The notes beneath the pieces are model-generated. The model saw only the letters and a list, made by a program, of their open reading frames with translations. It was not told where the DNA came from and did not search any database. A stretch of 64,000 bases of DNA from a virus (Duplodnaviria > Heunggongvirae > Uroviricota > Caudoviricetes), in IMG/VR virus record IMGVR_UViG_3300035515_000158; one strand, 5' to 3'. Each line of letters starts with the position of its first letter. The first letter of the stretch is position 1. The position numbers and the translations under genes are program-made. This document shows positions 33,179-60,780 of the stretch, one piece after another.

Positions 33179-34372
33179 TTAAACTTTTATCATTTCTTTA
33201 TAAAATGCTGACATTACATCTACTACGATAGAATTACCAGCAAGTTTACATAATTTTGTGTTATCCAATCCCATGTCAACTAATTTTTGTACATCATCAA
33301 ATTCAACACCAATCAGACGCATTTCCTCAACACCAGTAGTTTCTCTTACTTTATATTGACCATTTTCTTTGACCAAAATTAAGGGAGCATATACTAATGT
33401 AAATGTAGGTGCCACTCCTTTTGGTGAATAGATACGTGTTGACTGTGGATTTGGGAATGTTGCTCTGTCTGTTCGGATATTACCTATTTGAAGTATCTTA
33501 TTATACATATCAACTTCAACTTCATCAGGTTTTTCACCAAATATGTTTTCTTCAAATTCCTCATCAAAGTCCTTAACTGTTTGACATACGAAATCTGTTT
33601 GTTTTCCTTTTTTTACAACCTCAGCATATTTACCTGAATCAGTAACTTCCCTTTCTACAAATTCCTCATCATTTGTTTCACCAGCGAATTTTAAGATATT
33701 TGGATTACTTTTTACATATTCATCAGTACATACCTGACTAACATAACATTTAGGAGGTATCTCACTTGGTTTCTGTAAAAAGTCATTCATACACTTGGTT
33801 TGTTTAATAGGTCTTGGCCATTCAAATTCACCATCAGGATTAAGTACAGACACAACGAACACCCTTTCTCGTGCTTGTGGAATACCAAAGTCGGCTCCAT
33901 TTAACACTTTCCAATAAGAAGTGTATCCAAGTGAATCAAGAAATTCCAACCACTTCTTAAATGTGGGGAAGAATTTATTACCAACCAAATTCTTAACATT
34001 TTCCAACATCAAATATTTAGGTCGTTTGATTTCGATGGCTTTCTTACATTCCCACAAAAGAGATGATTTTGTACCAGAACCTTCCTCACCACCCAGTTTT
34101 TTACCAGCGATTGAAAAACTCTGACATGGTGAACTATAAGTAAAGAAATCAAAATCAGGTACATTTTCCCAATCTATTTTACAAATGTCACCATAATTTT
34201 TATCTTTGTATTCAGGAAACAATACATTATGTGCATCAATAGCTCGTTTCTCAATTTCACTCCACCCAATTAATTCAAAGGGAATGTGTGCCTTTTTGAG
34301 AGCAAGACATTGACTATCATATCCTGAGAAAGTTGTAAAAACTTTTAGAGGTTTCTCTTTATTATACTTCAT
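33179..34372 (-). CDS. C5-cytosine DNA methyltransferase (full length)
   Basis: FSGYDSQ (variant motif I), SPC, ENV, PQARER, motif X GNSIVV. Confidence 0.93.
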   Translation of the reverse strand: MKYNKEKPLKVFTTFSGYDSQCLALKKAHIPFELIGWSEIEKRAIDAHNVLFPEYKDKNYGDICKIDWENVPDFDFFTYSSPCQSFSIAGKKLGGEEGSGTKSSLLWECKKAIEIKRPKYLMLENVKNLVGNKFFPTFKKWLEFLDSLGYTSYWKVLNGADFGIPQARERVFVVSVLNPDGEFEWPRPIKQTKCMNDFLQKPSEIPPKCYVSQVCTDEYVKSNPNILKFAGETNDEEFVEREVTDSGKYAEVVKKGKQTDFVCQTVKDFDEEFEENIFGEKPDEVEVDMYNKILQIGNIRTDRATFPNPQSTRIYSPKGVAPTFTLVYAPLILVKENGQYKVRETTGVEEMRLIGVEFDDVQKLVDMGLDNTKLCKLAGNSIVVDVMSAFYKEMIKV

Positions 34373-34413
34373 CTAAATTTCTGTTTAACTTAAAAATAAC
34401 AAAAGGTGGTCAG

Positions 34414-35393: not shown

Positions 35394-35472
35394 ATCTATA
35401 TGTTTTTTATTATAAACATAACAAAGGACTCACCATAAATATAATATAATAGATTAAATTTTGTTAATTTCA

Positions 35473-50352: not shown

Positions 50353-51693
50353 TTATTTTAGTTTTTTCTTCAACTCATTCAAATCATCAAGATACATTTG
50401 TTTTGGATCCTCCTTTGAAATGTCATCTATCTGTTCTTTCTTATCACCAATCTTTTTCAACAATTCTTCATATCGTTCTTTTGTCAAACTATAAATTGGC
50501 ATGGTCAACAAATAATTATAACTGTCATCTATCCGGTCAAAATCATGTTCATCTAACCATGAAACAATTACATCTTTCTTTACACCATTTACATTCAATT
50601 TCTTGTCTATGATATTCTTGATAAACTTGGCTTTGTTGGTTAGTTCATTTAATTCCTTTTTGTGTTTATCTATCATGTAGTCTTTTCGTTTCTGATAATA
50701 ACCTAAACGGAAATTAACAAAATACTCTACAATATCTTCAACACAATCAAAGATTTTTAATTTTCCATACTCATCAAGTGTGGTCAAATTTTCAGTTGAA
50801 CTTTCATTAATTTTCAAGATGTCATCAAGTTTACCTTTTTCTATCAACTCATGTAAATCATCTCTTTTGAATTTTAATGTATAATCAACACCAGCCGACG
50901 AATTGTTATCGTAATCTTTAATGATTTTCTTATCTACTAAAGTGTCAAGATAACTTTCATATTTTTCAAAAGTCCAACTTGGTGGTAGTTCCGTAATATG
51001 TACATCATTCTTATTGACTTCATATTTACCTGTTATAACCCACTTATTTTTATTGTCTTTATCTCTTGTGTATGTACCAGAAAATTCCAAGAACCAAGGT
51101 TTTAATTCCTTCATCTTTTTACCATTCAGGACATCTACACAAGCATTTAGAACATCTTTAGGGTTTCTATTCAATATGTTAGACGCAAATCCAACCGCAA
51201 TACCTGATGTACCATTTAATATGATAGTTGGTAAAATAGGTAGGAAGTAAATTGGTTCAACCTCTTGTCCTTCATCATATCGACTTTCAAGTAATTCAAA
51301 ATCCTTATACAAGTTTCTAAAATTAGGTGAAAGTCTTGTTGATATGTAACGAGGAGCACCGGCACAGGTTGAACGAAGTGAACCATACTGACCAATTCCT
51401 TCCAATAGAGGTAATGAGTTCTTAAATGTCTGTCCCATTACTGTGATAACCGCATTGGCCGACTGATCACCATGATGATAATATGCATCCGCCGCCATTT
51501 GTCCGGATAATTGGAACACCTTCATGGGTTTCTCATTACCTGTTTTCCATATTTTATTAGCGACATATATTACCTTTCTACTGGTTGGTTTTAGACCATC
51601 AATCACAGAAGGAATGGCTCTGTTCTCAATTACATCTATCGCATACTCTTTCAACTCATTGTTCAAAAAGTCTGTTACATTTCTTGTTCTCAT
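50353..51693 (-). CDS. type IIA topoisomerase, breakage-reunion subunit (T4 gp52/GyrA-like)
   Basis: IDGLKP, YHHGD, APRY catalytic Tyr, NGTSGIAVG. Confidence 0.95.
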   Translation of the reverse strand: MRTRNVTDFLNNELKEYAIDVIENRAIPSVIDGLKPTSRKVIYVANKIWKTGNEKPMKVFQLSGQMAADAYYHHGDQSANAVITVMGQTFKNSLPLLEGIGQYGSLRSTCAGAPRYISTRLSPNFRNLYKDFELLESRYDEGQEVEPIYFLPILPTIILNGTSGIAVGFASNILNRNPKDVLNACVDVLNGKKMKELKPWFLEFSGTYTRDKDNKNKWVITGKYEVNKNDVHITELPPSWTFEKYESYLDTLVDKKIIKDYDNNSSAGVDYTLKFKRDDLHELIEKGKLDDILKINESSTENLTTLDEYGKLKIFDCVEDIVEYFVNFRLGYYQKRKDYMIDKHKKELNELTNKAKFIKNIIDKKLNVNGVKKDVIVSWLDEHDFDRIDDSYNYLLTMPIYSLTKERYEELLKKIGDKKEQIDDISKEDPKQMYLDDLNELKKKLK

Positions 51694-53561
51694 TGTCTTA
51701 ATTTTTCCTTTCTTTTTCCTGAATCACCACCAAACCAAATATCTAACTCATCTTGGGCAATGTCATCCAACTCATAATAATAGATGTTTGGATTTTGAAT
51801 AATGTCCTTATAATCTTTATCTTCAAGAGCGGAAAGACCTTTATAATATTCTACATTCCATTTCGTTACATCATTTTTTTCACACCATTCATCATAATCA
51901 GACTTATAGTAGAATTTAATCTCTTTCTTCCCTTGTTTAACTATCAGAATAGGTGTGTCAATCTTAGCAATACGATGTTCCTTGAATAATTCTGGCCAAT
52001 AACAAGCGAAGATATTGACCAACAAAGCTGAAATATTAGAACCATCTGTATCAGCATCAGTCAAGATATTAACCGTATGTATTCTGAGATTATCCTCAAA
52101 CAATTTTCCGTTTCTATATACAAATGGAGATTGACCGAATTTAAGTCCCATTGCAGACATTATACCCTGAATTTCCTTATTTTCCCTAATTTTTTCTTTG
52201 GAAGCATCTCTTGTATTGAGGATTTTACCTTTAATAGAAATAAGTGCTTGTGTTTCAGGGTTACGGAATCTACGGAAACCTGCACTGGCTGAGTCACCTT
52301 CCGTAATTGAAAGTGAGGTGAGGTGTTTTTTAGAAGTTCCCGCAAATTTACAATCAACCAATTTATCTACTTTAATTTTAGACAGGGATTTATTTACTTC
52401 ACGTTCGGCTTTCTTTTCATCAGCCAATTTTTTCTGGTCTAACCAATCAGTAATCGAGTTAGTTATTTCACTCTTATATATCTGATTAAGGAATTTGTCA
52501 GTCAGTTTTATCTCTGTTCCAAAATTCTTTATATCAGTAATCAGTTTTTCCTTTGTCTGACTACTAAATTGTGGATTAAAAACCGTTGAATTAATAAATA
52601 AGAAAATGTGGTTTTTAATCTGACCGGGTAGAATATCTGTTTTATATTTCTTACCGATTTTCTCTCTAAGGAAAGGAATAATTCGATTTAGTATATATTC
52701 CAAGTGTGTACCCCCATCATAGGTATATACACAATTCACATAACTAACTTGTTGAAATGAACCTGTGGGACTAACCGATACCCCAACTTGCCAATCTTTA
52801 TTTTCCTCATACAGTAATAATCCATCATCTTCAATATACATTTTACAGTAATCTTGAAATGAATTGATTTGGATTTTTTTACCATTATAGAAGATATTTA
52901 GATTTGGATTACACCCCGCGATTTCATATACTCGTTTTTCAATCAATTTCAAAACATCATCACCAATTTTATCCATCCCAAATCTACTCAGTTCGGGTGT
53001 GTATGTAATACGAGTGTAGTGTTGAATTGTGTTTTTAATCTGAGCCATGGAATGTTTCTTCATGTTGTCATTCCAATACATACTGAATTTCTTTTCTCCA
53101 TCAGCTGTTTCTACCTCAAATAATGTAGAGAAGATATTTGAAACGACTGAACCAATACCATTAGTTCCCACCCAAGTTCGTTTTTCAGTGTCATCAAAAT
53201 TAGAACCTGCTCTGAGTCTTGAAAAACAAACCGCTGGGATATATTCTTTGGTACCTTCCATCAGTTTAACAGGGATACCACCATTATCAAAAACAGATAT
53301 AGTTCCTTCATACTTATCTATATCTACTTTGATGGTGTTTAATTTAGTTCCTGTTCGCTTACTTTCATCAACTGAATTTGAGATAATTTCATCAAACAAT
53401 TTAAGGAAACCGGGATTATACTCAACTTCTTTCTGAACGAACTTACCATTCTCCAAAACATACTGGGTACTTTTCTCAGTCACAACAGAACCAATATACA
53501 TACCCGGTCTTTGAAGGATGTGGTCAATTTCACTAAGTATTTTATATTTTCTATTTTCCAT
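51690..53561 (-). CDS. type IIA topoisomerase, ATPase+TOPRIM subunit (T4 gp39+gp60 fused, GyrB-like)
   Basis: RPGMYIG, EIISNSVD, DNGGIP, GTNGIG, EGDSA, DADTDG, YYKGL. Confidence 0.95.
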   Translation of the reverse strand: MENRKYKILSEIDHILQRPGMYIGSVVTEKSTQYVLENGKFVQKEVEYNPGFLKLFDEIISNSVDESKRTGTKLNTIKVDIDKYEGTISVFDNGGIPVKLMEGTKEYIPAVCFSRLRAGSNFDDTEKRTWVGTNGIGSVVSNIFSTLFEVETADGEKKFSMYWNDNMKKHSMAQIKNTIQHYTRITYTPELSRFGMDKIGDDVLKLIEKRVYEIAGCNPNLNIFYNGKKIQINSFQDYCKMYIEDDGLLLYEENKDWQVGVSVSPTGSFQQVSYVNCVYTYDGGTHLEYILNRIIPFLREKIGKKYKTDILPGQIKNHIFLFINSTVFNPQFSSQTKEKLITDIKNFGTEIKLTDKFLNQIYKSEITNSITDWLDQKKLADEKKAEREVNKSLSKIKVDKLVDCKFAGTSKKHLTSLSITEGDSASAGFRRFRNPETQALISIKGKILNTRDASKEKIRENKEIQGIMSAMGLKFGQSPFVYRNGKLFEDNLRIHTVNILTDADTDGSNISALLVNIFACYWPELFKEHRIAKIDTPILIVKQGKKEIKFYYKSDYDEWCEKNDVTKWNVEYYKGLSALEDKDYKDIIQNPNIYYYELDDIAQDELDIWFGGDSGKRKEKLRQ

Positions 53562-53607
53562 AACTTAAACATAACAAAAGATGTGGCTTGAATGACCACA
53601 TCTTTAC

Positions 53608-53958
53608 CTATTTATTATTATTTATGTCATCTGGATCAAAGTAACGAAAACCTTGAAAACCTTTGTATGGGATTTTTTCTTCTAAATAATGAAATTTCCC
53701 ACTACGTTCAATAAAGTTTCCCTTAAATTTTCTACCTGTTGTTGTACAAGTAAATTCCTTTGTTGAAAAACCACATATAGTCATCCAACCCTTAATGAAA
53801 CCTTTGTGAACAATATAACATCTATCACCTTCTTTGACCTTAGTGGGGAAATTACTTACCTTGAAGTTTAATATCTCTCCCCTCTCCGCAGCCTTTAGTT
53901 CTTCCTTATAATCCTCCCAATCATAATTAGATGGATATGATATAATGATTGCATTCAT
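53608..53958 (-). CDS. hypothetical protein, PUA/ASCH-like
   Basis: GDRCYIVH..G....KGFQGFRY. Confidence 0.6.
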   Translation of the reverse strand: MNAIIISYPSNYDWEDYKEELKAAERGEILNFKVSNFPTKVKEGDRCYIVHKGFIKGWMTICGFSTKEFTCTTTGRKFKGNFIERSGKFHYLEEKIPYKGFQGFRYFDPDDINNNK

Positions 53959-54415
53959 TGATAAAATCTATTGTTTCTTTGTCACTATTTTCAAATGTTC
54001 GACCATAAATTTCGTAAGTCGTATCAAGTAATTTCTTTTTAATAGAAGAAACTGATACAAAATCTTTCTCTTTTATGATTTTCTTAGCATCCTTTACGAT
54101 TTGTTTAAGAGTTTTGATGTCATTTTTAGATATAACTGACAGAAATCCATCATCCTTAAAAGATTTGTTGAATTTAGAAACTAATTTTTTGAGGTCTTCA
54201 TAATCTTGGATTTCAGTTTCATCCGGTTCTTCAATTACATATTCTTCAACAACCACCTTATTAAAATCAACAAAAGTCGTTAAAGTAGAGACAACCTTAT
54301 CATCAGACTGTTTAATCAAATGTGAACCAGCACGAGTATCATTTTTACCATATCCTCGGTATTCACATATCATTCTTTTTACCAGTTTCTTTTTTGAATA
54401 TTTGTCTTTTACCAT
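53927..54415 (-). CDS. hypothetical protein
   Basis: ORF in operon. Confidence 0.65.
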   Translation of the reverse strand: MVKDKYSKKKLVKRMICEYRGYGKNDTRAGSHLIKQSDDKVVSTLTTFVDFNKVVVEEYVIEEPDETEIQDYEDLKKLVSKFNKSFKDDGFLSVISKNDIKTLKQIVKDAKKIIKEKDFVSVSSIKKKLLDTTYEIYGRTFENSDKETIDFINECNHYIISI

Positions 54416-56058
54416 AATTCTTCGTTTTTTTCTAAGTTCAACCCTTCATCGGCTGGGTAATCTTCTTGTAAATGGTCAACATAAATCTGAGCTCGTTCTT
54501 GTGGCATGTAATAACTCTCATCAGGTTCATTCTCAAGATAGTCATTGTATTCCGTTTTTAATTTAATCTTCTCCGGAAATTCATAGTAGGGATTTGGTTC
54601 ATCATCTGTTTTGAGAATAGAAATCATAAAAATTCGTTCTCGATTTTGAGGAATACCATAATCCTTAGCATTTAATACCTGATAGAAATTCACATATCCA
54701 TAAGACTCCAATTCTTTACACCATTTTTGAAACAAGTGAATGAATTTGTCAGAAACAAGAGCTTTCACATTTTCAAACAAAAGATATTTAGGTCTTTTCT
54801 TAATGATTGTTTTTCGACATTCCCACAAGAGAGATGAACGTGTACCAGAACCTTCAGTACCACCAAGTTGTAATCCAGCTTGTGAAAAATCAGTACAATT
54901 ATGGACAATACAACCATTAGCGGTATATGAATTATCTTTATCAACCTCCATGTTATATACCTCTACTTGACAATCATCATCAGTAGATATTTGTTTTACA
55001 GGACTCCAAAAATAACCATCCTCATAGAAACCATATTTTTCAAGATCTATCCAACATAATTTCCACTCACCACCATCTTCATTAATGATATATGGTTTTT
55101 GATATGACTTCGCAACACACTGAGCTAACTCATATATGAATTTTCTGTTAGTTGAATATATATTACCTTTAATACTATGATCCATTAAAGAAAATTCCTC
55201 ACTTTCAATAATACCATGTAATACTTCTTTCTGAAATTTAATAGGTAGGTTGAGAATATCACTGGTTAGATGTTTCTCTGACTCCGATGAACCAAATGTC
55301 TTAAAATAATCTACAACTTTTTCGACATCATATTTCTTAGCAGTGTCAGTCTCTATAAAACTGTAATAATACTCACCAAATTCCTTAGCCAATTCAGAGT
55401 TATCATTTCCCCAATTTCGACCAAGTAACATACCCAAAACAAACCAGAATGTATCTATCTTAAAATGTGTGTTTAATCCTGTTACTCTTGGTAATTTGGA
55501 TTCATTATTGATGGACACACCTACATAATCAGTAACTTGTAAATCTTGAGCATATTTCCACTTAGTTTTTTTCTTACCCTGATTTTCTCTTACATAAAAT
55601 GGGTGTGTTGGAGTACATTTAATTTCATCAGCATTGGTTGTTGTGACTTTAATTATAACACCACCATGAGTTTTAGACATAGGTGCTAAGACCTTACGAT
55701 ATTTGTTCTTATGTGTCAATACCTCATCATCACAAGTAATATCTTCAATACATTTCATACCATTCTTAGTCATAACAAATGTACCCGCAACAAAACAAGG
55801 TGAACTATATGTGAACAAATCAAAATCAGGAACATTATCCCAATCTATCTTACTGATATCACCATAGTTTCTGTCTTTCCATTGAGGGAACAGTGCATCA
55901 TGAGCTTGGATGGCATACTTATCTATCTCACTCCAACCAACAAGGTCATAATCAAAGTCATATTTTTCTTTTAGAGTATTGAGAGCCATACATTGACTAT
56001 CATAACCTGAGAAAGCTGTGAATACTCTTAATGGATGTTTCTTGTTAAATTCTACCAT
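54409..56058 (-). CDS. C5-cytosine methyltransferase N-terminal half (motifs I-VIII) with intein
   Basis: FSGYDSQ, SP|intein|CTDF, ENV, PQNRER; lacks motifs IX-X. Confidence 0.9.
   Translation of the reverse strand: MVEFNKKHPLRVFTAFSGYDSQCMALNTLKEKYDFDYDLVGWSEIDKYAIQAHDALFPQWKDRNYGDISKIDWDNVPDFDLFTYSSPCFVAGTFVMTKNGMKCIEDITCDDEVLTHKNKYRKVLAPMSKTHGGVIIKVTTTNADEIKCTPTHPFYVRENQGKKKTKWKYAQDLQVTDYVGVSINNESKLPRVTGLNTHFKIDTFWFVLGMLLGRNWGNDNSELAKEFGEYYYSFIETDTAKKYDVEKVVDYFKTFGSSESEKHLTSDILNLPIKFQKEVLHGIIESEEFSLMDHSIKGNIYSTNRKFIYELAQCVAKSYQKPYIINEDGGEWKLCWIDLEKYGFYEDGYFWSPVKQISTDDDCQVEVYNMEVDKDNSYTANGCIVHNCTDFSQAGLQLGGTEGSGTRSSLLWECRKTIIKKRPKYLLFENVKALVSDKFIHLFQKWCKELESYGYVNFYQVLNAKDYGIPQNRERIFMISILKTDDEPNPYYEFPEKIKLKTEYNDYLENEPDESYYMPQERAQIYVDHLQEDYPADEGLNLEKNEELW
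54898..55797 (-). mobile_element. 300-aa intein at the catalytic Pro-Cys
   Basis: Starts CFVAGTFV, LTH block B, ends VYNMEV..NSY.ANG.IVHN|C; degenerate LAGLIDADG-like blocks. Confidence 0.9.
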
Positions 56059-56276
56059 AAAACGTCATCTTGTTGTTTAGGTTTATGAATAAATAATTTT
56101 TCAAACATATTGGACATACAATTAACAACTATAGAATTACCATACATATTACAAAGTTGAGTATGTGAAATTCCACAGTTGGTCATTATATCAATATCTT
56201 CCTCCTTAACACCCATTAATCTTCCTATTTCTTTGGGTGTTAATTTTCTAATTCGATAATATTTTTTCTTAATCAT
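56052..56276 (-). CDS. C5 MTase C-terminal fragment (motifs IX-X only)
   Basis: RKLTPKEIGRLMG...YGNSIVVN. Confidence 0.85.
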   Translation of the reverse strand: MIKKKYYRIRKLTPKEIGRLMGVKEEDIDIMTNCGISHTQLCNMYGNSIVVNCMSNMFEKLFIHKPKQQDDVLW

Positions 56277-56294
56277 AATGTAAAGATAACAAAA

Positions 56295-56828
56295 TTAAAA
56301 GAGTGATGTTTCCGGATTGTTAGATTTTTGACAGAATAATTTTTTGAATATCTCTGACATCACATTTACACATATTGAATTACCAGCTAACTTTTTACAT
56401 TGGGTTTTTGGAACTGTATTTAACAAGGTTTCGACGTCATCATCACATACACCCATTAGTTTGAATGTTTCTCGATTAGTCAATTCCCTAACTTTGTAAT
56501 TCCTATCCCACACATAATTATCAGTAGAAAATGTGGTTAATGTATTGGAAAACCCTTGGTCTGTGACATCTAAATATTTACCTCTACCAAACTTAATCCC
56601 ACTATCACCATATAACCGTCTTAACCTTTTTTCTTCATCAGTTCGTTTTATTTTTAATATCTGAGGTGGTTTTATTTTGTCATTAAAGATATAAACATCA
56701 TCACCTTCAACTGTGCAACATATGTTCAATGAATTTTTAAGATATTTCCTTTTCTCAAATTCATCCTTTTTCAAATATAGACTGTCATCAACATTATATT
56801 CAATTATGTCATCTAAACTTTGTCGCAT
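56295..56828 (-). CDS. C5 MTase C-terminal half (TRD plus motifs IX-X)
   Basis: SLDDIIE..VDDSLYL, SNTLTT, RELTNRETFKLMG, AGNSICVN. Confidence 0.85.
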   Translation of the reverse strand: MRQSLDDIIEYNVDDSLYLKKDEFEKRKYLKNSLNICCTVEGDDVYIFNDKIKPPQILKIKRTDEEKRLRRLYGDSGIKFGRGKYLDVTDQGFSNTLTTFSTDNYVWDRNYKVRELTNRETFKLMGVCDDDVETLLNTVPKTQCKKLAGNSICVNVMSEIFKKLFCQKSNNPETSLF

Positions 56829-56941
56829 GGTCTCACCTCTTTAACTTCCCAACTTCGGTCAAAAATGTTATGGTAAAATATCACTTTATATGGTTCTTGA
56901 CCAACATATATAATCTTACTAAAATAAGGGGACTTCTCCAT
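56813..56941 (-). CDS. possible 42-aa protein
   Basis: MEKSPYFSKIIYVGQEPYKVIF... bridges the operon gap with overlaps at both ends. Confidence 0.35.
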   Translation of the reverse strand: MEKSPYFSKIIYVGQEPYKVIFYHNIFDRSWEVKEVRPCDKV

Positions 56942-57779
56942 CTTCTTTTTTCGTTTTTTCTTTCTTGTTTACATTATATGATACCTTACCATCATACTTT
57001 TCAACTATATTCAACCGTTCCATAATAATCTTATAGTATTCTTCACTGATTTCACTACCAATATATTTTCGATTATTTAGAATACACATCTTGGCCGTTG
57101 TTCCTGAACCCATAAAAGGATCGTAAACAATATCACCAGCATTACTCCAAGATAATATATGGTCTTGTGCTAACTGTTCGGGAAAGACCGCTGGATGACC
57201 TGTTCTATCTTTTTCACATGATGTAGTATAAGTCCAGATGTTATTCCTCAATGAAAACTCAGGAACGGGTTTTATCTTATTATCCCTCTCATCCTTTCCA
57301 TCTTTACTATAATATGTTAGTTTTCCCCAGTTCGTATGACCAGCCCATTTGTTTGGTTTATCACACAACAAATGTATGTCATTCCTAATCTTACCCTTAG
57401 TGAAAACAAACATATATTCAAAAATCTGAGTATATCTTTTTGAATCTGGTTTGGCCGGAAATGCTGATGAATTTTTTTGATATATCATAGTATCATGTAA
57501 CAGAAATCCACAATCCATAAAATAAAGAGCTTGTCTAAATGAAGTTCCTGTTTCTGTTCCACCTATAGTCGCATCACCAACTACCCATACTAAAACTCCA
57601 CCGGGTTTAAGAATACGGTATAATTCATGAGCAAGAGTATCAAATTCAAATGTATATCCATTATAATTCCTCAAAGAATCATATGGGGGAGAAGTGACAA
57701 CCAAATCAACAAAGTTATCACTGATACGTTTACACGTATCGACATTACTCTCATTATATATAGTATTTACTTCAATCAT
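56919..57779 (-). CDS. amino-methyltransferase (N4-C or N6-A, beta class)
   Basis: TSPPY (motif IV) before DPFMGSGTT (motif I); HPAVFP. Confidence 0.93.
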   Translation of the reverse strand: MIEVNTIYNESNVDTCKRISDNFVDLVVTSPPYDSLRNYNGYTFEFDTLAHELYRILKPGGVLVWVVGDATIGGTETGTSFRQALYFMDCGFLLHDTMIYQKNSSAFPAKPDSKRYTQIFEYMFVFTKGKIRNDIHLLCDKPNKWAGHTNWGKLTYYSKDGKDERDNKIKPVPEFSLRNNIWTYTTSCEKDRTGHPAVFPEQLAQDHILSWSNAGDIVYDPFMGSGTTAKMCILNNRKYIGSEISEEYYKIIMERLNIVEKYDGKVSYNVNKKEKTKKEDGEVPLF

Positions 57780-57867
57780 AACCTAAACATAACAAAAAAA
57801 GTAGACCATTTGTTATATCATATAATATACTTAGAATTTGTTATCTTTAAAGTAAATTAATTATAAA

Positions 57868-58599
57868 ATGAAGAAGATAGTAACTTTTATATCAGACACA
57901 CATGGTTTTACTACTAAACTAAATGAATTGATCAATAAGTCTTTACAAACAGAAAATGTTGATCATGGAGATATTATTATATGTAGTGGTGACTGTATGA
58001 CATCAGGTTATCACACTATGGAATTGACTACTTTTTTGTCATGGTTCTCTAAGTTACCATATACATATAAAGTATTTACACCCGGTAATCATGATAGATA
58101 TTTAGAATCTATTGGAGTTGATATGTCTAAGTCTATTTTTGAAACTCCTGAATATTTTGATATGGGTGTGAGATATGTTCAAAATGAATTAATTGAACTT
58201 GATTTTGATGGTGAGATTCTAAAAATATATGGAACGGGTGATCAACCTAAGTTTTGTAACTGGGCATTTAATAGGGATTCCGAAGAATTAATTTTTAGTT
58301 ATTCTAATATTCCAGATGGTATAGATATTTTGATTACTCATTGTCCTCCGTTTGGTATTTTGGACTGTTCTCATGTTCCTAATCCATATCGAAATACTAC
58401 TGGTGAAGAACATTTGGGGAGTGAGGAACTATTGGATCGATTAAATACTATAATAAATCCACCTAAATATCACGTGTTTGGACATATTCATGGTGATGGT
58501 GGTAAAATTATTGAACAAAGTGGTATTACTTTTATCAATGCATCTGTTTGTGATGAAAGTTATAGACCTAAAAATGAAATAAAAACAGTGAGAATTTGA
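57868..58599 (+). CDS. calcineurin-like metallophosphoesterase
   Basis: SDTHG, GDC, GNHD, THCPP, GHIH. Confidence 0.9.
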   Translation: MKKIVTFISDTHGFTTKLNELINKSLQTENVDHGDIIICSGDCMTSGYHTMELTTFLSWFSKLPYTYKVFTPGNHDRYLESIGVDMSKSIFETPEYFDMGVRYVQNELIELDFDGEILKIYGTGDQPKFCNWAFNRDSEELIFSYSNIPDGIDILITHCPPFGILDCSHVPNPYRNTTGEEHLGSEELLDRLNTIINPPKYHVFGHIHGDGGKIIEQSGITFINASVCDESYRPKNEIKTVRI

Positions 58600-58623: not shown

Positions 58624-60780
58624 TTAAACAAATGCATAAGTAAATTCTGTAGAACTATCTTTTATATATTGTTCAGTTGGAGTAAATTTCTCACCTTCTT
58701 TCATACCCCACAAAGACTGTACATAAAGTCTTTGATACGAAGTAGATGAAATAGCACTATACTTGTTTGCATAAATTTCATATACATTTCTATAAGTGTA
58801 ATTATCACTTGATGGTGGTATTAATTGAATACATCCTGTTTTAAATGATTGACGCATGTATGTAGAATATATATATCTATATCCCCCAAATAAACCAGAA
58901 TGTACTGTAATATTAGTTATAGCATACATCGGTTTTGATGAATTAACAGAATTTTGATAATTACCCAATCCAGTATAGTATATATTATCTTCAAATTTAC
59001 AAAAAGTGATATTACTTCCTTCTAAAAGACTACTTTTTAAAGATGTCCATGTAGTATATTTAGTTATTGTTCCATCATCATCTATATCATTATCAATAAA
59101 TCCTAACCAATTATATCCACAGTTCTTTCCAAACGTGTTAGAGTAGCAATATTGCCCAAACGTGTTATAGTCGCAATCTTGCCCAAACGTGTTAAAGTAG
59201 CAATATTGCCCAAACGTGTTAGAGTAGCATTTTTGTCCAAACGTGTTAGAGTAGCAATATTGCCCAAACGTGTTAGAGTTGCAATATTGCCCAAACGTGT
59301 TAGAGTAGCAATATTGCCCAAACGTGTTAAAGTAGCATTTTTGTCCAAACGTGTTAGAGTTGCATTTTTGTCCAAACGTGTTAGAGTAGCAATATTGCCC
59401 AAACGTGTTATAGTCGCAATCTTGCCCAAACGTGTTAGAGTTGCAATATTGCCCAAACGTGTTAGAGTAGCAATATTGCCCAAACGTGTTAGAGTAGCAT
59501 TTTTGTCCAAACGTGTTAGAGTAGCAATATTGCCCAAACGTGTTAGAGTTGCAATATTGCCCAAACGTGTTAGAGTAGCAATAATTACCTAATGTCATTC
59601 CATAACAATCTTCTTCTATCACATTATCATGTACACTATATAAAAATCCTAAAAACGTTTCGGGTGAAGTATCTTCATTAGTGTCATCTTGTGCATATGC
59701 GATACCCGTAGCCTCACTATATCTATTGTCATATTTAGTAAATACAATATTATTTAATTTTAAAACATTGTATACAACATCATCATCATAACATACAAGA
59801 ACATGATATGGTTTTATAATATTATTATATGGGCAAGACGTTTCATACTCACCATATGCACCATATGAGGTACCATATATTTTATCCTCATATATATGGT
59901 TCATATTTTGTGATATTTGTCTTTCATATAAAGATGCATCCGAAAACATAAAATCTGAATCAGTAAAACAATTATTAAATGTGTAACAATAAGTCCACAT
60001 TGATGTATCATATTTAAATATATAATTGTTTTTATGTGCAAAAAAAGGATATCTACCGGGTGAACAATTTGTAATAAACTTGGGCCACTCATCATCTATT
60101 TCATAACTTAATGTGTTACTACCATATATGTCATCACAAAACATATCAGTAGGTAATAATATTTTTTCAGTAGGTTTAGTATAATTACAACCAGTTACTT
60201 TATATCGTTTAAATAATATATTTTTAAAATCATATGGTGCCTCATTACCAAATTCATCTTTCATGTAATAAATAACACCTTTACCAGCACTATCTGCCCA
60301 GTAAAATCTGTTGGTGTCATTATCTAAGCAATATTTTAATTCCCAAGCTTCTAATTTTGAATTATTAAAATAATCTACACCAACATTATACACTGTATAT
60401 ATTTTAGGTTCATAATTATAATATCTTGTATTAAATTTATTTGTGGGTGTCGAGTTATAAATCACCCCGGACATATAATGTGATTGTATTGCTTTTGCGT
60501 CTTCTGAAATCGTGTTTCTTGATAATGCCGTTACAATTATATCAAATTTATGACCTGCTGAAGCCGTTTCTTCCTGAGAAGTTGTTGTTACATAATCAAT
60601 TATACGATATTGTTTACCGGGTGTTAGTTTACTACTATCTCTTAAATCAACCAGATCATTATATAAAATTTCTCGAATACGCTCTTCTTTATATTTACAA
60701 TTATCTAAATCAAAATATTGTTGGGCAACACTTACTAATGTATTACTTCCATCAATTATTGTTAATGTTGGATTAGCCAT
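58624..60780 (-). CDS. late protein with 9-aa beta-helix-type repeats, probable fibre/receptor-binding protein
   Basis: 17 x (Y/K/D)C(Y/N/D)(S/F/Y)NTFGQ; LTPGKQYRIIDY N-terminal motif; late-like motif CATAAATT at 60789. Confidence 0.65.
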   Translation of the reverse strand: MANPTLTIIDGSNTLVSVAQQYFDLDNCKYKEERIREILYNDLVDLRDSSKLTPGKQYRIIDYVTTTSQEETASAGHKFDIIVTALSRNTISEDAKAIQSHYMSGVIYNSTPTNKFNTRYYNYEPKIYTVYNVGVDYFNNSKLEAWELKYCLDNDTNRFYWADSAGKGVIYYMKDEFGNEAPYDFKNILFKRYKVTGCNYTKPTEKILLPTDMFCDDIYGSNTLSYEIDDEWPKFITNCSPGRYPFFAHKNNYIFKYDTSMWTYCYTFNNCFTDSDFMFSDASLYERQISQNMNHIYEDKIYGTSYGAYGEYETSCPYNNIIKPYHVLVCYDDDVVYNVLKLNNIVFTKYDNRYSEATGIAYAQDDTNEDTSPETFLGFLYSVHDNVIEEDCYGMTLGNYCYSNTFGQYCNSNTFGQYCYSNTFGQKCYSNTFGQYCYSNTFGQYCNSNTFGQDCDYNTFGQYCYSNTFGQKCNSNTFGQKCYFNTFGQYCYSNTFGQYCNSNTFGQYCYSNTFGQKCYSNTFGQYCYFNTFGQDCDYNTFGQYCYSNTFGKNCGYNWLGFIDNDIDDDGTITKYTTWTSLKSSLLEGSNITFCKFEDNIYYTGLGNYQNSVNSSKPMYAITNITVHSGLFGGYRYIYSTYMRQSFKTGCIQLIPPSSDNYTYRNVYEIYANKYSAISSTSYQRLYVQSLWGMKEGEKFTPTEQYIKDSSTEFTYAFV
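59129..59587. repeat. 27-bp coding tandem repeat, 17 units
   Basis: Consensus CCAAACGTGTTAGAGTAGCAATATTGC; no spacers. Confidence 0.95.

Follow-up and report, generated by a model that had tools for sequence, protein, structure and literature searches.

Can the catalytic half of a cytosine-C5 DNA methyltransferase (MTase) be shared by more than one completing chain? The question is raised by a locus in the Caudoviricetes record IMGVR_UViG_3300035515_000158 of IMG/VR, of which a stretch of 64,000 nucleotides, hereafter the window, was analysed. C5 MTases usually carry their ten motifs on one polypeptide, and at this locus the motifs are spread over separate open reading frames (ORFs): N549 encodes a catalytic half with motifs I-VIII, two genes upstream of it, C177 and C74, each encode motifs IX-X, and the gene that follows, p162, encodes a probable free target-recognition unit. 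Sequence comparisons indicate that the locus is a true split C5 MTase, neither a frameshift nor a decaying gene. We consider it somewhat better than an even chance that its single catalytic core receives its missing parts in trans, from C177 or else from C74 together with p162, and that two target sequences would be served in this way.

A methyltransferase divided over separate genes

The genes of the locus lie on the minus strand and follow one another on the coding strand as an N6/N4 amino-methyltransferase, C177, C74, N549, p162 and p116. N549 (54409..56058, 549 amino acids) matches PF00145 with an E value of 1.5e-41 and only to profile position 203 of 324, which corresponds to motifs I-VIII, and it also holds the first element of the variable region. 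C177 (56295..56828, 177 amino acids) covers profile positions 189-323, a complete small domain, or target-recognition domain (TRD), followed by motifs IX-X. C74 (56052..56276, 74 amino acids) covers positions 271-322 and holds motifs IX-X only (RKLTPKE..., GNSIVV), so that by PF00145 motifs IX and X are found on both completing chains. An initial annotation of this DNA had placed these three ORFs at the correct coordinates, and the division it proposed (I-VIII, IX-X, and TRD-like plus IX-X) is borne out by the profile, as is its remark that the starts are clean, every piece having its own ATG and stop codon. It omitted the intein within N549 as well as p162 (53927..54415), which probably belongs to the system.

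The window comes from a giant gut phage, is AT-rich and represents 64 kb of a genome of roughly 330 kb; the IMG/VR fragment G001 (95 kb) is 99% identical to it across the locus, and related phage contigs span 155-411 kb. Orthologs of C177, with 58-64% identity, were found on six IMG/VR contigs, and five of these keep the same permuted gene order, which establishes the conservation of the layout that the initial annotation had left to be checked; the sixth, L009, ends before the catalytic gene. In these relatives the order is a full-length C5 MTase, C177, a piece of 113-125 amino acids, a C74 counterpart of 72-73 amino acids, the catalytic N-part and a p162-like gene. The N-part is intein-less (245-251 amino acids), the p162-like gene measures 112-127 amino acids, and the 113-125-residue piece, a short TRD core followed by IX-X, provides a third IX-X piece, as against two in the window.

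The pieces meet at short overlaps. The stop of C74 and the start of N549 share seven nucleotides, ATGGTAG (56052-56058), and the stop of N549 and the start of p162 share ATGGTAA (54409-54415); by these overlaps the three genes are translationally coupled. These junctions raise the possibility that a -1 frameshift at TTATGGTAR joins the pieces into a single permuted chain, IX-X-I-VIII-(TRD), a proposal that gains from the identity of the 9-nucleotide sequence and of the -1 frame relation at both sites, and from the existence of natural single-chain permutants (PMC5944983). Against it, neither junction contains a slippery heptamer, the same junction also precedes unrelated inserted ORFs, and in the relatives the pieces are physically separated: in L011 and L015 the C72 gene and the N-part lie 0.9-1.4 kb apart with other ORFs between them, and in L011 and L012 an ORF of 133 amino acids stands between the N-part and the p162-like gene. 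The presence of unrelated ORFs between the pieces implies that these work as separate polypeptides, and the frameshift is very unlikely, in agreement with the opinion expressed in the initial annotation. The junction TTATGGTAR (Leu-Trp-stop overlapping Met-Val), which joins the MTase pieces and is found before the inserted ORFs at L011 8822, L012 9742 and L015 9022, behaves as if it were a reusable cassette boundary.

A second alternative is that the ORFs are decaying fragments of MTase genes that were once complete. The element duplicated between C177 and N549 and the two IX-X copies do suggest past duplications. The ORFs are nevertheless intact and of constant length, their catalytic motifs are kept in more than 100 clusters, and the pairwise ratio of nonsynonymous to synonymous substitution (dN/dS) is 0.05-0.29 across all five piece families, with synonymous differences near or at saturation. 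On this comparison all pieces are under purifying selection, and decay was rejected as exceedingly improbable.

The catalytic half and its intein

The catalytic motifs of N549 are FSGYDS, SSP/C (restored by splicing), ENV and QNRER. Without its intein the protein is an extein of 249 amino acids with an acidic C-terminal tail (...NEELW) and without a TL-type recognition core. Intein-less orthologs of 245-251 amino acids are 62-78% identical to it, and a stand-alone N-part of 245-248 amino acids forms more than 100 clusters in a large protein collection drawn from metagenomes. Among 120 clusters of N-part homologs, SSPC, ENV and QxRxR are intact in 119-120.

The intein (54898..55797, minus strand; 300 amino acids, residues 88-387 of N549) matches PF14890 with an E value of 7.8e-15 as well as Hint families. 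It is inserted between Pro87 and the catalytic Cys of motif IV (...YSSP/CFVAGT...IVHN/CTDFSQAG), and all residues of a class 1 intein were found, namely Cys1 (CFVAGT), the block B TxxH (TPTHPF), the His-Asn pair (IVHN) and the +1 Cys. Since the +1 nucleophile of the intein is at the same time the catalytic Cys of the enzyme, the extein would be inactive until spliced, and the intein would thereby impose a post-translational requirement for activity. No endonuclease family match was reported for this intein in the family search at E values up to 0.1; reading of the sequence reveals two LAGLIDADG-like stretches without the usual acidic residues, and the related inteins of L011 and G003 carry recognisable LAGLIDADG motifs.

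The same position is occupied elsewhere in this clade. A 154-residue mini-intein is found at this site in homologs of 401 amino acids, a LAGLIDADG intein interrupts motif IV of an unrelated full-length MTase of L011, and a third MTase lineage, in G003, has an intein of 375 amino acids there. The Pro/Cys step of motif IV is thus a recurrent intein site in three C5 MTase lineages (L011 3388-5757; L028 28-1872; P0126), with inteins ranging from 154 to about 375 amino acids.

Two kinds of completing chain

C177 can be assigned with the help of a structural model. The AlphaFold2 model, built from 45 homologs, has a mean predicted local distance difference test (pLDDT) score of 82.6, and in a fold search all of its matches with Z of at least 5 belong to the C5 cytosine MTase family (DNA MTases and Dnmt2-type enzymes). 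Residues 1-152 align with M.HhaI 188-306 (Z 5.0-5.6); of all matches, EhMeth scores highest (Z 6.6). As modelled, C177 comprises the whole small domain, the hinge and the motif X helix. Its family consists of about 45 clusters, every one of 175-179 amino acids, with TLTTF in 49 and GN[SA] in 50 of 51 homologs, a dN/dS of 0.05-0.11, and in the window a C-terminal end ...ETSLF. The resemblance of its first residues to the end of N549, to which the initial annotation had drawn attention, is real, since both segments align to PF00145 positions 189-203, and the duplication of this element is thereby confirmed.

C74 is of a different kind. It begins six residues ahead of motif IX, ends in ...DDVLW, and has orthologs of 72-73 amino acids in L012, L013 and L015 and a further one in L011, where the same 73 residues follow a conserved ATG within an ORF listed at 100 amino acids from an upstream start. 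The dN/dS of this family is 0.08-0.23. Because C74 has no TRD, N549 and C74 alone would lack the DNA-reading loops.

A candidate free target-recognition domain

The missing loops would most probably be provided by p162, in which residues ~8-62 form a probable free target-recognition unit (family A1/A4) followed by a helical extension of about 100 amino acids. Its N-terminal unit has the pattern GYG..GSH..STLTTF..NKVVVE. In the relatives the family comprises two units, the first with the signature DGTxRTIVAWYAKGG and the second with the pattern GYG..GSH..TTLTTF..NKAVVEVY; the window p162 consists of unit 2 only, with the helical extension.

The assignment of unit 2 draws on several comparisons. 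Aligned against the TRD core of C177 (residues 72-108), it gives an hhalign E value of 0.042, and a hidden Markov model (HMM) of unit 2, searched against 1,681 local sequences, finds beyond its own family almost exclusively the TRD core of the C177 family (E 0.026-1). In a multiple alignment, unit 2 is collinear with the TRD cores of C177, of the 113-residue piece, and of C155 and a 397-residue MTase, both described below, and it ends exactly where those cores run on into motif IX. The AlphaFold2 model of p162 (mean pLDDT 81.8) has three strands around the TLTTF loop in the pattern of the C177 model. The fold search gave generic helical-bundle matches to residues 64-162 only, the small N-terminal unit being effectively outside its reach.

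Unit 1 is illuminated by a database protein. When the p162-family profile was compared with 1.84 billion representatives, 22 matches were obtained, most of them stand-alone proteins of 58-113 amino acids. One, P0018 (415 amino acids), contains four or five tandem repeats resembling unit 1, followed by motifs IX-X, and has no motifs I-VIII. Because these repeats precede motifs IX-X, unit 1 would sit in the position of a TRD. The source contig of P0018 was absent from the viral and metagenome scan results. Other searches returned little: tblastn of p162 against 50,697 phage records and a word-index search of the family profile against longer proteins gave no match, neither the profile nor P0018 had a meaningful match among PDB sequences, and in the protein atlas the window p162 had no usable match, the sole named lead being one cluster of which 26% of the members carry PF00145 (score 0.92). 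Taken together, p162 is probably a TRD.

Those who doubt this assignment might prefer an arrangement in which N549 and C177 are the sole sequence-specific enzyme, C74, a closing piece with no TRD, either makes the enzyme relaxed or inactive or else titrates its core, and p162 is unrelated to methylation. C177 alone does provide everything that N549 lacks, and the evidence for a TRD in p162 is weak. This arrangement would leave unexplained why the order and coupling of the C72-74, N-part and p162-like genes are kept in the relatives under strong purifying selection on all three, why the p162 family stops exactly at the start of motif IX in collinear alignments, and why unit 1 repeats in tandem before motifs IX-X in P0018. 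It is regarded as improbable.

A proposed single core with several partners

The numbers of pieces provide the main support for a shared core. The window encodes a further C5 MTase, a single-chain, intein-less paralog of 397 amino acids (33179..34372, minus strand) that is 58-64% identical to the N-part across motifs I-VIII. In G005, G003 and G002 its orthologs are themselves split into two ORFs (L027 988-2180; L028 28-2336; L029 761-2302): an N piece of 239-242 amino acids (614 with the intein in G003), 64-77% identical to paralog residues 2-231, and a C piece of 155 amino acids, C155, with 51-53% identity to residues 255-396. In two of the three genomes the N and C ORFs share four nucleotides (ATGA). 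By these comparisons the fused and split forms appear to be equivalent in this phage clade.

G003 and G005, which are 94% complete, each contain two N-only pieces versus four IX-X pieces. Of the two N-only pieces, one is coupled to C155, which leaves C177, C125 and C72 to share the single remaining N-part. Neither in the window nor in G001 was any N-only piece seen besides N549. It is mainly because the completing pieces outnumber the catalytic halves that one core with several partners is proposed.

In the proposed assembly, the intein of N549 would first splice out and join Pro87 to the catalytic Cys, giving a core of 249 amino acids. This core would have neither the motif X helix that closes the S-adenosylmethionine-binding domain, nor motif IX, nor the DNA-reading loops, all of which would come in trans. 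In M.HhaI the motif X helix belongs to the large domain, and the core would next bind the motif X helix of a completing chain. With C177, the partner would bring a small domain with its own TRD and motifs IX-X; alternatively, a small domain might be built from the tail of N549, the p162 unit (~55 N-terminal residues) and motif IX of C74, which would amount to a three-chain enzyme. Each assembly would methylate a target sequence of its own, and the two, alongside the single-chain paralog and the N6/N4 MTase, would shield the phage DNA from several host restriction enzymes. We infer from the sequences that the chains assemble physically, that they are active, that one core serves both sets and that p162 acts as the TRD.

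Several observations weigh against this proposal. The element equivalent to M.HhaI ~188-203 is present both in C177 and in the tail of N549, and the two therefore do not stem from a single clean cut. The unit to which C177 belongs is the upstream one, that of the N6/N4 MTase. As 64 kb of a ~330-kb genome were seen, another N-only piece could exist elsewhere. For p162, the profile match of P0018 rests on unit 1, which is missing from the window protein, BLASTP against C155 gave no significant match, and the TRD assignment is weak at the E values obtained (0.042 with hhalign, 0.026 at best with the unit-2 HMM).

Some of these points would also suit a different scheme, in which the coupled trio of C74, N549 and p162 is the sole holoenzyme and C177 has another role; it might be the partner of a different catalytic piece encoded elsewhere in the genome, a DNA-binding specificity factor, or a competitor of the trio. 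The trio shares a promoter motif and the 7-nucleotide overlaps, C177 stands upstream with the N6/N4 MTase and duplicates an element already present in the N549 tail, and in the relatives C177 directly follows the gene of a full-length, 418-residue C5 MTase, overlapping it in L009 and L015. On the other side, the only other N-only piece of G003 and G005 is coupled to its own C155, and C177 has the E..L[FW] tail of the N-part, C72 and C113, a tail that neither the two-piece pair nor the full-length enzymes possess. As for the duplicated element, overlapping fragments of M.SssI are known to complement each other (PMC3404938). The trio as sole holoenzyme is considered unlikely, and completion of a shared core by C177 or by C74 with p162 is retained as the preferred reading.

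Transcription and regulation

A promoter-like motif, TTTGTTATNTTTA, has 18 matches in the window versus 4.7 expected, nearly all on the coding strand and a few nucleotides upstream of start codons; such placement implies very short leaders. One form, TTTGTTATGTTTA (57784..57796, minus strand), lies 4 nucleotides upstream of the start of the N6/N4 MTase, and another, TTTGTTATCTTTA (56281..56293, minus strand), lies 4 nucleotides upstream of the ATG of C74. The latter is the class II motif that the initial annotation had reported at 56281; it is real, and it is kept upstream of the C72-74 orthologs in four relatives. Matches to TTTGTTATNTTTA also stand before a topoisomerase gene (53566-53578), before the 397-residue paralog (34391-34403) and at 35413-35425.

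The sole terminator-like hairpin in 53400-58000 (53577..53605, minus strand) follows p116 and ends the operon, and the six genes are thus best taken as one operon with an internal promoter. The separate regulation of C74 that had been suggested did not hold up, as the same motif precedes both units and no terminator was found between them. The suggested switching of specificity, in its genetic sense, fared no better, as neither a phase-variation tract nor an invertible cassette was found: in 53500-57900 no G/C runs of at least 6, no A/T runs of at least 9 and no convincing inverted-repeat cassette were seen.

A shared C-terminal tail

The N-part, C72-74, C113-125, C177, P0018 (QLELF) and the N6/N4 MTase of the window have in common a C-terminal L-W or L-F, which in most cases follows acidic residues. 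It is found as LW in 118 of 120 N-part clusters and as L-W or L-F in 44 of 46 C177 sequences, and is absent from the N242/C155 pair and from the full-length enzymes. Where the genes overlap, the embedded ATG in part dictates the codons TTA TGG; the tails in L-F do not lie at overlaps. By its distribution, the tail distinguishes the members of the multi-piece set, and it may serve as a docking peptide. It resembles the C-terminal docking peptides of clamp-binding or single-stranded DNA-binding protein (SSB) type.

One could imagine a combinatorial MTase in which all chains dock by their tails on the same ring or hub at the replication fork and one core methylates new phage DNA at several motifs. 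On the hub, the catalytic half would be brought into contact with any specificity chain that is bound there. A search of G001, G003 and G005 for a phage sliding clamp with PF02768 and PF02916 gave no match, and this scheme is given a low probability.

Other genes at the locus and in its surroundings

The first gene of the operon encodes the N6/N4 amino-methyltransferase (56919..57779, minus strand; 286 amino acids), which matches PF01555 with an E value of 1.7e-46 and, below the cut-offs, adenine-specific MTase models of NCBIfam; its C-terminus is ...GEVPLF. For the final gene of the transcription unit, p116 (53608..53958, minus strand), comparison with Pfam, PHROGs, NCBIfam and PDB sequences revealed no family, and the gene is not present at the loci of the relatives.

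Conversely, a gene of 156-173 amino acids between C177 and C113 in the relatives (L013 6852-7361, with orthologs in L009, L011, L012 and L015) is absent from the operon of the window. It has a weak, sub-cut-off match to a nucleosidase model (NF004168, E 0.0016), and from this resemblance its product might act for the methylation operon as an S-adenosylhomocysteine nucleosidase.

Directly downstream of the operon (50353-53561, minus strand), ORFs of 446 and 623 amino acids resemble, from a reading of their translations only, the two subunits of a T4-type topoisomerase II. At 58624-60780 (minus strand) lies an ORF of 718 amino acids in which a YSNTFGQYC-like unit of 9 residues is repeated in tandem about 20 times.

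Significance and comparison with known systems

C5 DNA MTases are treated as monomers with very few natural exceptions. If the proposed assembly is true, it would represent a new phage route to multi-specific protection against restriction, a living intermediate for circular permutation as the duplication model explains it, and a ready-made split scaffold for targeted methylation tools, which have until now been bisected artificially (PMC3404938, PMC5944983). The family is abundant in gut and rumen metagenomes, and for this reason many uncultured giant phages probably have methylomes shaped by it. A full-text literature search found no description of a multi-partner split C5 MTase. The "methylase I/II/III" cluster of Bacillus phage JBP901 was considered and set aside, its layout being different, with two full-length genes flanking a partial gene of 221 amino acids.

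Two-chain C5 MTases do exist, as the initial annotation had stated, M.AquI and M.EcoHK31I being natural cases (PMC3404938). In the passage of that paper that deals with M.AquI of Agmenellum quadruplicatum (Karreman and de Waard, 1990; Pinarbasi, 2002), the large chain carries motifs I-VIII together with a portion of the variable region, and the small chain carries the rest of the variable region and motifs IX-X. As far as that passage describes the enzyme, the N549 extein with C177, and the N-part of the relatives with C113, divide the motifs likewise, and the N242/C155 pair of the relatives is a direct analogue. By the same description, M.AquI-type order is large then small with one completing gene, whereas here the completing genes lie upstream of the catalytic gene and number two in the window and three in the relatives, a TRD is missing from one completing chain, the catalytic gene is followed by a separate TRD-like gene, and the catalytic chain contains an intein. 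M.EcoHK31I is similar in that a small separate polypeptide gives a late motif to a larger C5 MTase chain (PMC3404938); there, however, motif IX is the only one split off, motif X and the TRD remaining on the large chain, whereas here IX and X both lie on small chains.

The gene order also recalls the circularly permuted C5 MTases of type H (M.BssHII, M.Alw26I, M2.Eco31I, M.Esp3I and M2.BsaI), which, like all natural circular permutants, are ordered TRD-IX-X-I-VIII (PMC5944983). The succession of C177 (TRD-IX-X), C74 (IX-X) and N549 (I-VIII) matches this order. Type H enzymes are single polypeptides, whereas the pieces described here are encoded separately, each with a start and a stop codon of its own, and in the relatives inserts lie between them.

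Multispecific C5 MTases are found in the Bacillus phages SPR, phi3T, rho11s and H2. Such enzymes of Bacillus phages are mentioned in PMC8936443. They and the proposed system have in common one phage catalytic core for several TRDs and protection from several restriction systems. In the SPR type the TRDs stand in tandem in one chain, between motifs VIII and IX; the candidate TRDs of the window lie on their own chains (C177 and p162), a completing chain with tandem TRDs was seen only in the database protein P0018, and the specificities of the phage studied here would instead be carried by separate, exchangeable subunits.

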